Below are positions 17,974 to 22,655 of a DNA stretch of 64,000 nucleotides, piece after piece. How positions within the stretch are numbered: the first letter of the stretch is position 1; the number at the start of each line of letters is the position of its first letter. Origin of the DNA: Myxococcales bacterium (lineage in GTDB: Bacteria > Myxococcota > Myxococcia > Myxococcales > 40CM-4-68-19); NCBI GenBank assembly GCA_036518615.1, contig DATDMU010000273.1, positions 751 to 64,750 on the forward strand, read 5' to 3'. Made by a program: the position numbers and the translations under genes. The notes beneath the pieces are model-generated. The model searched no databases, had not been told where the DNA came from, and worked only from the letters and a program-made list of their open reading frames with translations.

Positions 17974-19443
17974 ATGAAGCTGATGCCGATGGTGCTTGCA
18001 GCAACCCTGGTCACGCCTGCGCTGGCGGCGCCGGTGGCGAAGGATCCGACCTGGTGGGACAAGTACCAGACCATCCTCAACAGCGGCGCCGATCCGCTGG
18101 TCACCGCGACGTCCTCTTCCACCGCCACCAACGTGGACGTCTCCAACGAGTGCGGTCCGCAGAGCGAGACCTTCATCGCCATCAACCCGTCCAGGCCCCG
18201 GCAGCTCGCCGCCGGCTCGAACGAGATCTTCCGCCTGCCCATGCGCGGCTACTTCTCCACCGACAACGGCGCCTCCTGGGGCGGCGTGGACCTGCCGCTT
18301 CCCGACGCCATCGGCGCCAACGGCATCCGCTTCGGCTCCGATCCCACGCTCGCCTTCGACAGCTCCGGCAACCTCTTCTACGGCTACATCGTGGTCTTCT
18401 TCGGCGCCGGCAACGGCATCAACGGCACCGAGATGGCGGTCGCGCGCTCCACCGACGGCGGCAAGACGTATCCGCAAGCAACCTTCTTCGCCTTCAACGG
18501 CGGCAGCGATCACTTCAACGACAAGCCGATGATCACCGCCGACACCAGCGCCGCCAGCCCCTTCAGGGACAGCGTCTACGTGGCCTGGGACGCGGCCAGC
18601 GGCGGCTCGGCCACCGGCGGCGGCATCCGCGTGGCGCGCTCCACCGACCACGGCAAGACCTTCAGCGTGACCCGCGCCGACGATCCGTCGGGACCGGGCC
18701 GGTCCATCGGCGCCACCGTCACCACCGGACCGCAAGGGCAGGTCTACGTCGCCTGGAACGACTTCGCGGCCAACGCCATCGTCTTCAACTCCTCGCTGGA
18801 CGGCGGCGCCACCTGGGGCACGCCGCACGCCATCGCGCAGAAGACGGTGGCTTTCGACATCGGCATTCCCGCGGAGTCGTTCCGGCGCGCGCTGGTCTAT
18901 CCCGCCTGCGCCGCGGACATCTCCTCGGGCGCCCACCGCGGCCGCATCTCCTGCTCGTGGACCGACGTGAACGCCGCCGGCAATCTCGACGTGCTGGGAA
19001 GCGTCTCCGACGACGGCGGCGGGACGTGGAGTCCGCCCGCGCCGGTCGCGGAGCGGCTGGGCAACGTGGACCGCTTCAACCAGTGGCTCGCGGCCGACCC
19101 GGTCACCGGCCAGGTGGCCGTCTCCTTCTACGACACGCGCAACGACACCACCGGCCAGCGCTTCATGACCGACGTCTACCTCTCCCGCGGCGACGGCCTG
19201 TCTTTTGGCCCCAGCGCGCGGGTCAGCGACGTCAGCTCCAACGAGCACGACTGCAACGGCCTCTTCCCCTGCCCGAGCATCAACTATGGCAACCAGCAGG
19301 GCGACTACGAAGGCGTCGCGGCGTACGGCGGCACCGTCCACGCCATCTGGACGGACAGCCGGCGCAACCAGGAGCAGCAGACCGCCTCGTGCGGCCGCGG
19401 CCGCGGCATCATGGAGGAGGTCTTCACCGCCACGGTGAAGTAG
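17974..19443 (+). CDS. Secreted BNR/Asp-box repeat beta-propeller protein (sialidase/glycosidase-like)
   Basis: Signal peptide MKLMPMVLAATLVTPALAAP and five Asp-box motifs (STDNGASW, STDGGKTY, STDHGKTF, SLDGGATW, SDDGGGTW). Confidence 0.85.
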   Translation: MKLMPMVLAATLVTPALAAPVAKDPTWWDKYQTILNSGADPLVTATSSSTATNVDVSNECGPQSETFIAINPSRPRQLAAGSNEIFRLPMRGYFSTDNGASWGGVDLPLPDAIGANGIRFGSDPTLAFDSSGNLFYGYIVVFFGAGNGINGTEMAVARSTDGGKTYPQATFFAFNGGSDHFNDKPMITADTSAASPFRDSVYVAWDAASGGSATGGGIRVARSTDHGKTFSVTRADDPSGPGRSIGATVTTGPQGQVYVAWNDFAANAIVFNSSLDGGATWGTPHAIAQKTVAFDIGIPAESFRRALVYPACAADISSGAHRGRISCSWTDVNAAGNLDVLGSVSDDGGGTWSPPAPVAERLGNVDRFNQWLAADPVTGQVAVSFYDTRNDTTGQRFMTDVYLSRGDGLSFGPSARVSDVSSNEHDCNGLFPCPSINYGNQQGDYEGVAAYGGTVHAIWTDSRRNQEQQTASCGRGRGIMEEVFTATVK

Positions 19444-19570
19444 CGGCTGCTTCGTCGGAGTCCGGCAGTTCAGGCGCCGACGCTCGCATGTCGTTCTTCG
19501 CTCGCGTCCGGAGGGTCCGCGGTGTAGATGCATGCTGCGCCGCGAGACCCCGGGCGCGAACGGAGACGAA

Positions 19571-20080
19571 ATGGCACAGCCGAACAGGCCGGTCTACCGC
19601 TTGCAGGTCGGCGAGGAAGCGCCCGACTTCGAGCTGGAGGCGACGGGCGACACCGCCGGCAAGGGCGGGCCGCGCAAGAAGATCCACCTCAGCGACTACC
19701 GCGGAAAGAAGAACGTGGTGGTCGCGTTCTACCCGGCGGCGTTCACGCCGGTTTGAACGGTGCAGATGCCCTCGTACGAGGAGGATCTCTCCGAGTTCGA
19801 GCGGCGCAATGCCCAGGTCCTGGGCATCTCGGTCGACCAGGTGTTCAGCAACGAGGCATGGGCCAAGTCCATGGGCGGGCTTTCGTATCCGCTCTGCAGC
19901 GACAACTGGCCCTACGGCTACGCCGCCACCCGCTACGGCGTGCTGCGCGGCGAAGGGCGCACGGAGCGCGCCATCTTCGTCGTCGACAAGGCCGGCATCG
20001 TCCGCTACATCGACATCCACGCCATCGGCGAGCAGCCGCCCACCGACAAGATCATGGAAGCGCTGGACAAGCTGAGGTGA
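19571..20080 (+). CDS. Peroxiredoxin (AhpC/TSA-BCP type) with an in-frame TGA (19754-19756) at the peroxidatic Cys position; predicted selenocysteine-containing peroxiredoxin
   Basis: ORFs 19532..19756 and 19760..20080 are in the same frame and separated only by TGA-ACG. Joined, they read ...KKNVVVAFYPAAFTPV-U-TVQMPSYEEDL..., so the TGA falls where peroxiredoxins have FTPxC. GGAGA lies upstream of the ATG at 19571. A hairpin follows the TGA. Confidence 0.75.
19765..19787 (+). promoter_or_regulatory. Candidate SECIS (selenocysteine insertion sequence)-like hairpin downstream of the peroxiredoxin TGA
   Basis: GATGCCCTCGTACGAGGAGGATC folds as a 3-bp lower stem, a G.G mismatch, a C-G pair, a bulged A and a 4-bp upper stem (CCTC/GAGG) with a GUAC tetraloop. 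The upper stem starts 13 nt after the UGA. Confidence 0.4.
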
Positions 20081-20085
20081 GCGGA

Positions 20086-20769
20086 GTGGAGAAGCCGCTG
20101 GAGCTGTCGCGGTACTGCGTCCCCTTCACGCCGTTCGGCAAGCGGCTGGAGGAGTCGCTCATCTGCCTCGTGAGCACTGCCGGAGTGCGGGCGAAGAGCG
20201 ACAAGCCGTTCGACGTGGAGGGCGACGCGAGCTTCCGCCGCATCGATTCCAGCCTGTCGGCGGCGGATCTGGCCGTGGACGACGTCCACTACGATCACGG
20301 CTGCATCGACAAGGACGTGAACTGCGTCTTTCCGGTGGACCGGCTTGCGGCGCTGGCCCGCGAAGGACGCATCGCAGGGACGGCGCCGGAGCACTTCGCC
20401 ATGGGCTTCTCGCAGGCCCTGCGCGATCTGCGCGAGACCACGATCCCGCAGATCGCGCGGGCGGTCTCCGCGGCGCGGCCCGACGCGGTGCTGCTCACCG
20501 GCGGCTGACGCCTCTGCCACCGCACCGTGGTCACGGTGCAGAGGGCCATCGAGATGCTGGGCATTCCCACCGTCCTCATCACGGTGGAGCCGGAGGAGAG
20601 CGCGCAGGCCCGCCCGCCGCGCGCGCTCTGCCCCACGGGCTTCGTCGCGGGCCACTCGCTCGGACGCCCCAACGACGAGGCGCTGCAGAAGTGGATCGTC
20701 TCCGACGCGCTCGGTCTCCTGCTTGCGCCGCCCCGGCCTGGCGAAGTGATCCGCCGCGACTTTGCGTGA
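20086..20769 (+). CDS. Selenoprotein B family (glycine/sarcosine/betaine/D-proline reductase GrdB/PrdB-like) protein with an in-frame TGA (20506-20508) in a U-x-x-C motif
   Basis: The tail of ORF 19528..20508 and ORF 20527..20769 share one frame. Joined, they read ...RPDAVLLTGG-U-RLC-HRTVVTVQRAIEMLGIPTVLITV. This parallels the GrdB motif as I recall it (..T-U-G-T-C-T-R-C......E..GIP.V). The N-terminal part (VPFTPFGK..., LVSTAGV..., GDASFRRI, VHYDHG, DVNCVFPVDRLAALAREGRI) also fits the family. The GTG start at 20086 lies 5 nt after the peroxiredoxin stop. Confidence 0.75.
20523..20538 (+). promoter_or_regulatory. Candidate SECIS-like hairpin downstream of the GrdB-like TGA
   Basis: CACCG-TGGTCA-CGGTG is a 5-bp stem with a 6-nt loop containing GGUC. 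It starts 14 nt after the UGA. This spacing and the G-U loop resemble bacterial SECIS elements. Confidence 0.5.
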
Positions 20770-20914
20770 AGAAAACGCTAGTTAATTCAGCATCTTGCCT
20801 GCTCGCCGGCGGGTCTTCCGCATCTGCGGCGGGGCGCGCGACGAAGCTTCCCTGCACTCCGTCGCCTACCGTACAATCGCGCCCGTGAATCCATCTTCGA
20901 TCGCGGGGTTGCGC

Positions 20915-21512: not shown

Positions 21513-22655
21513 ATGGTCCTGCCGCTTCTGGCGCTGCTCGGCGCTGGCCTCGTCGCCGACGGCTCGCTGCGCCTCGAGGCGCGCGGGGGCACCACCGTGG
21601 CCGGCCAGGACCCGAGCGCCGGCTCGTTCTCCGCCGATCTGCGCAGCGCGCTGCTCGGGCCCGACGGAGCGCTGCGGCTGAACGTCGCGCCCACCGCCGT
21701 CTACTCCCAGGGCAGCCAGGTCTTCGTCCGCGGCGGCATCGAGGGCGAGCTGCGCCTGGGGCAGACCTCACTGCTCCGCGTACGCCAGCGCGGCGGCTAC
21801 GGTGCGGTGGATCTCTCGCCCGTCTCCGGCGCGCTGCCAGCGCCGTCGGCAGACGCCGCGCCGCGGCTTCCCCCGGGCTCCGGATTCGCCTTGCTGCAGG
21901 AGTCGAGCACCGCCGCCGAATTCGAGTCCGCGCTCTCCCAGCGGCTGCGGATCTCGGGCTCCGCGGCGTGGAGCGTCTCGGGAGGTGCGGATGCCGCGGC
22001 TCGCGCTGCCATGCCGCTCTCGCGCGGGCCCCAGGCACGGACAGCCCTGGAATGGGCAGCGACGCGGCTCGACCTCCTGCGCGCGCAGCTCGCGGCCCTG
22101 GAAACCCGCTACTCCAACGGGCGCAGCGCGGCGGTGGCCAGCCTGACCGGCGAATGGCGCTCGACGCTGTCGCGCAGCGCCGAGTTCTCCCTCTCGGGCG
22201 GACCCGCCGTGGGCCGCATTTCCGACGAAGGCCAGCCGGTGCGCACGCTCCCCTACGCGGTCGGCGCAGCGGATCTGCGCGCCGCCGTCGGCCGCGACAT
22301 GCAGACGTCTTTCGGGGTGTCGGTGGAGCCTTTGGGCGATCCGCTGACCGGCGAGCTGGTCGAGCGCGCCTCCGCCCACGTCTCCGCGGGATGGGAGCCC
22401 ACCGGCCGGCCCTCGGTGACCCTGCGGCTCTCCGGCAGCCTGGCCCTGACCGACGGCAACGGCGGGGCCGACAGCGCCGAACGGGGCGACCGGTTCCTGC
22501 AAGCGGAGCTGAGCGCGCGCGTGCCGGTTTCGCGGCGCACCGCGCTTTTCCTGGGCGCGCGTGGCGCCACCCTCAGCCGTCCCCTGCCGGGCCAGCCTGC
22601 GCGGCAATGGGTCGCATTCGTCGGCTATTCCGTGGAGCTCCCGCAGCTCCGGTGA
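21513..22655 (+). CDS. Hypothetical secreted protein, candidate outer-membrane beta-barrel partner of the OPX protein
   Basis: N-terminal hydrophobic segment MVLPLLALLGAGLVA. Amphipathic segments rich in G/S/A/R/L alternate throughout, and the C-terminus is WVAFVGYSVELPQLR. It lies 10 nt after the OPX gene. I recognised no catalytic motif. Confidence 0.5.
   Translation: MVLPLLALLGAGLVADGSLRLEARGGTTVAGQDPSAGSFSADLRSALLGPDGALRLNVAPTAVYSQGSQVFVRGGIEGELRLGQTSLLRVRQRGGYGAVDLSPVSGALPAPSADAAPRLPPGSGFALLQESSTAAEFESALSQRLRISGSAAWSVSGGADAAARAAMPLSRGPQARTALEWAATRLDLLRAQLAALETRYSNGRSAAVASLTGEWRSTLSRSAEFSLSGGPAVGRISDEGQPVRTLPYAVGAADLRAAVGRDMQTSFGVSVEPLGDPLTGELVERASAHVSAGWEPTGRPSVTLRLSGSLALTDGNGGADSAERGDRFLQAELSARVPVSRRTALFLGARGATLSRPLPGQPARQWVAFVGYSVELPQLR

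Follow-up and report, generated by a model that had tools for sequence, protein, structure and literature searches.

Positions 19571-20080 of the window, the 64,000-nucleotide stretch of Myxococcales DNA that was analysed (70% G+C), very probably encode one genuine peroxiredoxin with selenocysteine (Sec) at its catalytic position. On the comparative evidence presented below, the probability of this reading is roughly 0.93. The gene had been recognized in a sequence-only reading as two open reading frames, 19532..19756 and 19760..20080, interrupted by a TGA. These two frames are indeed one frame, with only the TGA at 19754-19756 and the codon ACG between them, and the joined translation is AFYPAAFTPV-U-TVQM, as read directly from the DNA. 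Across 75 genome loci, the catalytic codon is TGA in 71, TGC in three and TGT in one. The features on which the argument depends are the following.

19562..19565, plus strand: Shine-Dalgarno sequence GGAG, 5 nt before the ATG at 19571, by direct reading of the sequence.
19571..20080, plus strand: predicted Sec-peroxiredoxin gene of the AhpC/TSA family, 169 codons plus a TGA stop; its sole internal stop is the TGA at 19754-19756.
19754..19756, plus strand: UGA predicted to specify selenocysteine (U62), the peroxidatic residue, from alignment to Cys homologues and from conservation.
19765..19787, plus strand: GUAC-loop hairpin, seen in the single-sequence fold and not a conserved element.
19768..19805, plus strand: H1, a 38-nt hairpin between the UGA and H2, variable in sequence with pairing kept; a proposed spacer.
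19809..19827, plus strand: H2, the GGUNC-loop hairpin AAUGCCCA-GGUCC-UGGGCAUC, proposed to be the portion of the SECIS that SelB binds.
20086..20769, plus strand: gene for a PrdB-like UxxC selenoprotein, with a GTG start and 227 codons, 5 nt after the peroxiredoxin stop.
20506..20508, plus strand: predicted second selenocysteine codon (LLTGG-U-RLCH), a TGA kept in 12 of 12 orthologous loci.
20522..20539, plus strand: predicted SECIS hairpin GCACCGU-GGUC-ACGGUGC, belonging to the PrdB-like gene; the loop is at +23, a canonical spacing.

The peroxiredoxin starts at the ATG at 19571, and all of its orthologues begin at the same methionine, with MAQP or MAKP. Across the Sec position the joined product reads FTPV-U-TVQMPSYEEDLSEFER, and it matches the AhpC/TSA profile PF00578 over the full profile (positions 1-124) at 6e-34, scoring 117 bits against a 26-bit cut-off. 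The proposal that the TGA occupies the place of the catalytic Cys is borne out by alignment, in which it falls on the peroxidatic Cys of Mycobacterium tuberculosis AhpE and of the Cys-containing homologues; likewise, the coding-like GC3 attributed to both sides of the TGA amounts to 0.93 on each. An alignment of 34 diverse homologues shows no variation at P55, T59 and R133, and at position 62 all of them carry U or C; these residues constitute the PxxxTxxC plus Arg catalytic set of peroxiredoxins, and a second conserved Cys that could act as a resolving Cys is absent. None of the NCBIfam models reaches its own cut-off with the joined product, and the PrxU equivalog NF040737 misses its threshold with 66 bits against 270.

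The solved structures closest in sequence are those of plant 2-Cys Prx and M. tuberculosis AhpE. An AlphaFold2 model of the peroxiredoxin (pLDDT 89.6, pTM 0.87) places residue 62 at the N-terminal end of a helix spanning residues 60-71, and a fold search with this model matched many solved peroxiredoxins at E ~1e-17. The best mutual match was AhpE (TMq 0.86, TMt 0.94, rmsd 1.3 Å, 35% identity). Chains of the Prx1/AhpC type cover the model equally well, but their C-termini extend past it. Chain length, the lack of a resolving Cys and the closest fold form the basis for assigning the protein, as modeled, to a short AhpE-like 1-Cys type, with neither a C-terminal extension nor a resolving Cys.

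The gene that follows encodes a protein whose orthologues start with MEKPLEL at the position of the GTG at 20086. It matches the PrdB model TIGR04483 with 154 bits (3e-45), missing the 300-bit equivalog cut-off. An orthologue of this PrdB-like gene is found in exactly the 12 relatives that have the TGA peroxiredoxin pair (Fisher p = 1.6e-9), and the association extends beyond these close relatives. Viewed from the PrdB-like side, a peroxiredoxin lies directly upstream on the same strand in 64 of 71 informative metagenome loci; viewed from the peroxiredoxin side, a PrdB-like gene is nearby in 45 of 80 genome loci, none of them in Chloroflexota. No shared partner gene was seen beside the chloroflexotan peroxiredoxins, and one relative, G039, carries the Sec-peroxiredoxin alone, without a PrdB-like gene; the PrdB-like partner therefore cannot be obligatory. 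The PrdB-like protein was modeled with a pLDDT of 92. A sequence search of the PDB with it returned nothing, and a fold search found no solved structure like it (best E 6e-3, TM at most 0.38).

Several further observations concern the distribution and variety of these genes. The module is patchy within its own genus, being present in the window's genome and in 7 of 18 other genomes of that genus, although nearly all of them have selA, and in this respect it resembles an accessory module or one that is frequently lost. Three relatives (G003, G019 and G023) contain only a distant PrdB-like paralogue, 35-38% identical and with a TGA. At Pyrinomonadaceae loci such as L080, L083 and L087, the PrdB-like motif is GG-U-PxVCH, in which Sec and Cys are one residue farther apart than in the GG-U-xLCH of Myxococcota, and some acidobacterial members have Cys instead (GGCPNVCH). 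Upstream of the pair, positions 17974-19443 encode a secreted protein of 489 residues with BNR/sialidase-like repeats (PF13088, PF02012); 128 nt separate the end of this gene from the start of the peroxiredoxin, and nothing was seen that ties it to the selenoprotein pair.

These properties suggest how the two proteins might work together. By analogy with peroxiredoxin chemistry, Sec in the PxxxTxxU site would attack peroxide and be converted to a selenenic acid. Because the peroxiredoxin has no conserved second Cys, recycling would need an outside reductant, for which the likeliest candidate, judging from co-occurrence and adjacency, would be the PrdB-like UxxC selenoprotein. That this protein is the redox partner of the peroxiredoxin has, on the genomic evidence, slightly less than an even chance of being correct. 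If the two do constitute a two-selenoprotein peroxidase, this would explain why 'PrdB' is found in metagenomes in numbers near those of Prx, with respective counts of 43 and 42 in the Sargasso Sea and 253 and 235 in the GOS data (PMC1088965, PMC2398784). A two-selenoprotein peroxidase would also fit a genome in which prdA (TIGR04480) was not found, a result that is weak evidence in that the control of the search was silent.

The pair can be read differently, with the peroxiredoxin as a true selenoprotein that mainly serves a purpose other than removing peroxide: together with the PrdB-like protein it would reduce another substrate (for instance a disulfide, or a compound derived from selenium or from an amino acid), and the peroxiredoxin would serve as a redox relay. 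Relatives of PrdB and GrdB are substrate reductases, the two genes are strictly coupled, and the PrdB-like fold has no solved relative that would fix its chemistry; the prdA result points the same way, with the weakness just described. All four catalytic residues of a peroxiredoxin are nevertheless invariant, the fold is that of AhpE, a bona fide peroxidase, and in Chloroflexota the same Sec-peroxiredoxin stands alone. This alternative is considered unlikely, and a peroxidase function is preferred for the Sec-peroxiredoxin.

Sec insertion depends on dedicated machinery, and the suggestion that the genome be searched for it was followed with a positive result for all four genes, selA, selB, selC and selD. 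The window's genome is a metagenome-assembled genome (MAG) of 547 contigs, 80.6% complete with 6% contamination. Profile searches identified selB (303 bits), selA (494 bits) and selD (362 bits), each above its curated cut-off, along with a tRNA-Sec (74 bits) that ARAGORN calls SeC with anticodon TCA. These sel genes are on contigs of the MAG other than that of the window, and selD itself has an in-frame TGA. The gene selA is present in all 13 genomes with the TGA form (the window's genome included), and the TGA-form peroxiredoxin occurs in none of the eight relatives that lack selA. A global reassignment of TGA was considered and rejected: the peroxiredoxin gene, the one after it and the gene at 21513..22655 all use TGA as their normal stop, and therefore the code is not reassigned. 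Additional selenoprotein genes, each with one in-frame TGA, were noted elsewhere in the genome, at G000:C463:3535-4467 (+), G000:C75:12918-13220 (-), G000:C229:16209-16586 (-) and on G000:C296, C123, C100 and C186; these comprise selD, two thioredoxin-fold/Prx-like genes and three or four of the FdhA type.

The RNA downstream of the UGA was analysed by scoring candidate hairpins on a gapless alignment of the 71 Sec forms, against 500 shuffles. The hairpin with a GUAC tetraloop that the sequence-only reading had put forward at a SECIS-compatible distance is present and belongs to the minimum-energy fold (z = -2.2), but it is not a conserved element of the family. It is 70% paired, its covariation is 0.076 compared with 0.062 in shuffles, and 29 of 500 shuffles equal it; with no covariation beyond shuffles, it was rejected as a family-wide SECIS. 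Comparison of the Sec forms instead shows two predicted RNA elements, H1 and H2, that are conserved 3' of the UGA. H1 has 77.5% of its cells paired, with both sides changing in 10 of 14 pairs (e.g., C-G 34 / A-U 26), and it is seen in most single-sequence folds despite a sequence that differs between phyla. H2 has 97.5% of cells paired among the 71 Sec forms, and its loop residues G67 and U68 are invariant; its third pair is G-C in 49 and A-U in 18, and two sequences replace C-G with G-C. Scored jointly, H1 and H2 reach a covariation of 0.220 versus 0.108 for shuffles, none of the 500 attaining this value, and controls slid along the alignment give 0.046-0.082.

An independent metagenome set gave a similar result for H2, which is 95% paired and has the GGUNC loop in 42 of 48 sequences. 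With a fixed register, H1 is 77.7% paired in this set, which is no better than the 77.3% of the GUAC hairpin; how the RNA folds from the UGA up to H2 is therefore known with less certainty than H2 itself. A crude count of self-contained H1 among the minimum-energy folds, 14 of 48, was uninformative. Constraint on the nucleotide sequence is also apparent at synonymous sites. Pairwise dS averages 0.87 ahead of the TGA, drops about fourfold to 0.18 in the next 25 codons and is 0.62 in the distal part, with almost no synonymous variation in codons 66-86. Relative to synonymous-codon shuffles, the 78 nt after the UGA have a mean z of -2.0 in the 71 Sec forms, whereas the same test on eight Cys forms gave about -0.6 (range -2.0 to +0.4), with only one below -1.2. 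A scan of 19500-20800 against Rfam at E up to 10 returned chance matches only and no fitting family, and RNAalifold on the close relatives gave a covariation term of -0.02, these sequences being too alike.

Since H2 lies within coding sequence, it might have been a by-product of the AQVLG peptide and G+C-rich codons. This explanation was rejected, because seven of the eight Cys forms have lost H2, several of them while still encoding AQVLG, mostly breaking the stem at synonymous sites, and because high-GC genomes that change GCC...GGC to ACC...GGT in H2 switch both sides together.

The position of H2 is unusual. Its loop lies at +62 from the U of the UGA, and the apex of H1, which has no conserved loop, lies at about +31. 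The bSECISearch model expects a SECIS apical loop about 16-37 nt after the UGA. In E. coli, the minimal SECIS hairpin follows the rule of 11 nt from the UGA (PMC8659212), and H2 is some 40 nt farther away than this spacing permits; a 2022 review mentions known selenoprotein genes that depart from the SECIS model (PMC9312934). Other selenoprotein genes of the same genome provide a useful comparison. Its FdhA genes have a stem of 6-7 bp with a (G/A)GUCU loop starting at +21 after the U of the UGA, and both this element and the hairpin of the PrdB-like gene are similar to the SECIS of E. coli and Moorella. In selD, a hairpin of 19 nt precedes a CAGGUCCUG hairpin whose loop is at +35. The +62 layout recurs in a second Sec-peroxiredoxin-like gene (contig C75), with a first hairpin and then a CAGGUCCUG hairpin. 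The resemblance of the H2 loop to the FdhA SECIS loops of this genome makes H2 a putative SelB-binding site, an assignment by analogy that is somewhat favored.

A mechanism for recoding can be proposed from these elements. The UGA at 19754-19756 would be decoded as Sec by the SelA, SelB, SelD and tRNA-Sec of the genome, under the direction of mRNA structure within the coding sequence, consisting of H1 and then H2. SelB would bind H2, and H1 may act as a spacer by which H2 stays close to the ribosome while the UGA occupies the A site. This bipartite SECIS, in which H1 would bring an H2 at +62 into range, and the two-selenoprotein peroxidase are offered jointly as a tentative model, with odds somewhat against the two holding together. 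The genome displays graded layouts, from +21 in FdhA through +23 in the PrdB-like gene to +35 in selD, and the layout of the peroxiredoxin falls outside the spacing limits of SECIS predictors.

The possibility that selenium is not involved has been weighed against the same evidence. Read-through of the UGA might insert Trp, Cys or Gly, as ordinary amino acids, through near-cognate decoding, or two polypeptides might be made and assemble, the second starting at the in-frame ATG (M66) four codons past the TGA that gene callers use as the start of a 104-residue fragment. This M66 is not preceded by a Shine-Dalgarno sequence, however, and a fragment beginning there would, according to the AlphaFold2 model, comprise only half of the thioredoxin fold and have no catalytic residue. 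The confinement of the TGA form to selA-bearing genomes, and the conserved hairpin with a SelB-type loop that accompanies the TGA and is lost from seven of eight Cys forms, also argue against decoding without selenium, which appears very improbable from these comparisons.

The Sec reading of the UGA is further supported by the conservation of the codon and by selection on the gene. Orthologues with 63-93% identity were found in 12 of 40 related genomes, each with exactly one TGA, at the same codon, such that TGA occupies the catalytic codon in 13 of 13 orthologues in related genomes. When one genome per species was scanned, 80 loci were obtained in Myxococcota, Acidobacteriota, Chloroflexota, Dormiibacterota and others, including the cultured Anaeromyxobacter terrae SG22, and 50 further TGA forms were retrieved from metagenome contigs by way of the neighboring PrdB-like gene. 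Cys orthologues (61-67% identity) and Cys paralogues (42-44%) carry Cys in the TGA column. Chance is excluded as the cause of a TGA at this codon. The 13 close orthologues give dN/dS values of 0.23 for the part preceding the TGA and 0.28 for the part beyond the SECIS zone, which indicate that both halves of the gene are translated and under purifying selection. The relatives, in which decay of the gene was to be looked for, keep TGA or Cys at the codon and exhibit none. One Cys orthologue, L126:411-911, is 67% identical, has TGT at the catalytic codon and retains both SECIS-like hairpins, with a codon-shuffle z of -2.0; this suggests that Sec was recently converted to Cys there and that the SECIS persists as a fossil.

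The reading of the gene as a dead or truncated peroxiredoxin, in which the TGA arose by nonsense mutation or faulty assembly, as might be supposed from the two ORFs of standard gene calling and from the 104-residue 'peroxiredoxin' fragments that make up more than 100 clusters in databases, has a negligible probability in view of the same TGA in more than 130 independent assemblies from several phyla, the purifying selection on both halves, a frame that is never broken elsewhere in orthologues, Cys as the only alternative at the codon and, against an origin from a single contaminant, orthologues on contigs of up to 4.8 Mb from different taxa.

The Sec-peroxiredoxin has implications for annotation. 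The database clusters mentioned above (P0015-P0124) are 3' halves starting from M66 that have been named peroxiredoxin, AhpC or redoxin-domain protein, and a dedicated profile model would fix many such records of split selenoproteins. One of these clusters, P0050, runs on into the frame of the neighboring gene.

Much of the biology is already known. A Sec-peroxiredoxin, PrxU, was purified from Eubacterium acidaminophilum in 2001, according to the account in a later review (Sohling et al., cited in PMC13188914). The selenoproteome of Anaeromyxobacter dehalogenans, reported in 2006, includes three peroxiredoxins and one proline reductase (PMC1794560); thus Sec-peroxiredoxins and 'proline reductase' selenoproteins have been known in Anaeromyxobacter since that year. 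In ocean metagenomes, the TxxU 'Prx' and UxxC 'PrdB' proteins are among the most abundant selenoprotein families (PMC1088965, PMC2398784), and the description of Sec-peroxiredoxins as rare in the sequence-only reading was overstated, given the standing of TxxU peroxiredoxins among the most abundant catalogued bacterial selenoprotein families. The modestly new parts are the pairing of the peroxiredoxin with the PrdB-like protein and the displaced hairpin. The selenoprotein operons given in a 2026 review combine Prx with a SelW-like protein and a Prx-like with an AhpD-like protein, and its list does not include Prx with PrdB (PMC13188914); a literature search for a paper naming a Prx-PrdB operon found none. 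The pairing gives a testable function for the large family of 'proline reductase' selenoproteins, and the displaced SelB-type hairpin suggests that the E. coli spacing rules miss a class of bacterial SECIS elements.

Comparison with known systems places the gene pair among familiar proteins and identifies where it departs from them. PrxU and the TxxU Prx proteins share with the window's peroxiredoxin the AhpC/TSA fold and a Sec at the peroxidatic position of PxxxTxxU, and the Sec-peroxiredoxins of A. dehalogenans come from the same lineage. The window protein is not an orthologue of PrxU, however, being shorter (169 residues versus 233 profile positions) and without the C-terminal extension. 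AhpE (Rv2238c) of M. tuberculosis is alike in length, in an SDFWPHG-type motif and in the lack of a resolving Cys, but has Cys in place of Sec and belongs to an actinobacterial rather than a myxococcotal host; since Actinobacteria have mycothiol and mycoredoxin and the Myxococcota host differs, the reductant must differ from that of AhpE. PrdB of the clostridial D-proline reductase (TIGR04483) resembles the neighboring protein in its family-level match, UxxC motif and length, whereas the neighbor scores below the equivalog cut-off and is coupled to a peroxiredoxin instead of to prd genes. Finally, H2 shares with the SECIS elements of E. coli fdhF and Moorella fdhA a short G+C-rich stem and a GGUC-type loop. 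Its invariant loop G and U are like G23 and U24 of fdhF, and the loop G and U of the E. coli and Moorella elements contact SelB (PMC8659212). In those two elements the loop lies ~21 nt from the UGA, whereas that of H2 lies 62 nt away, with a 38-nt hairpin in between.
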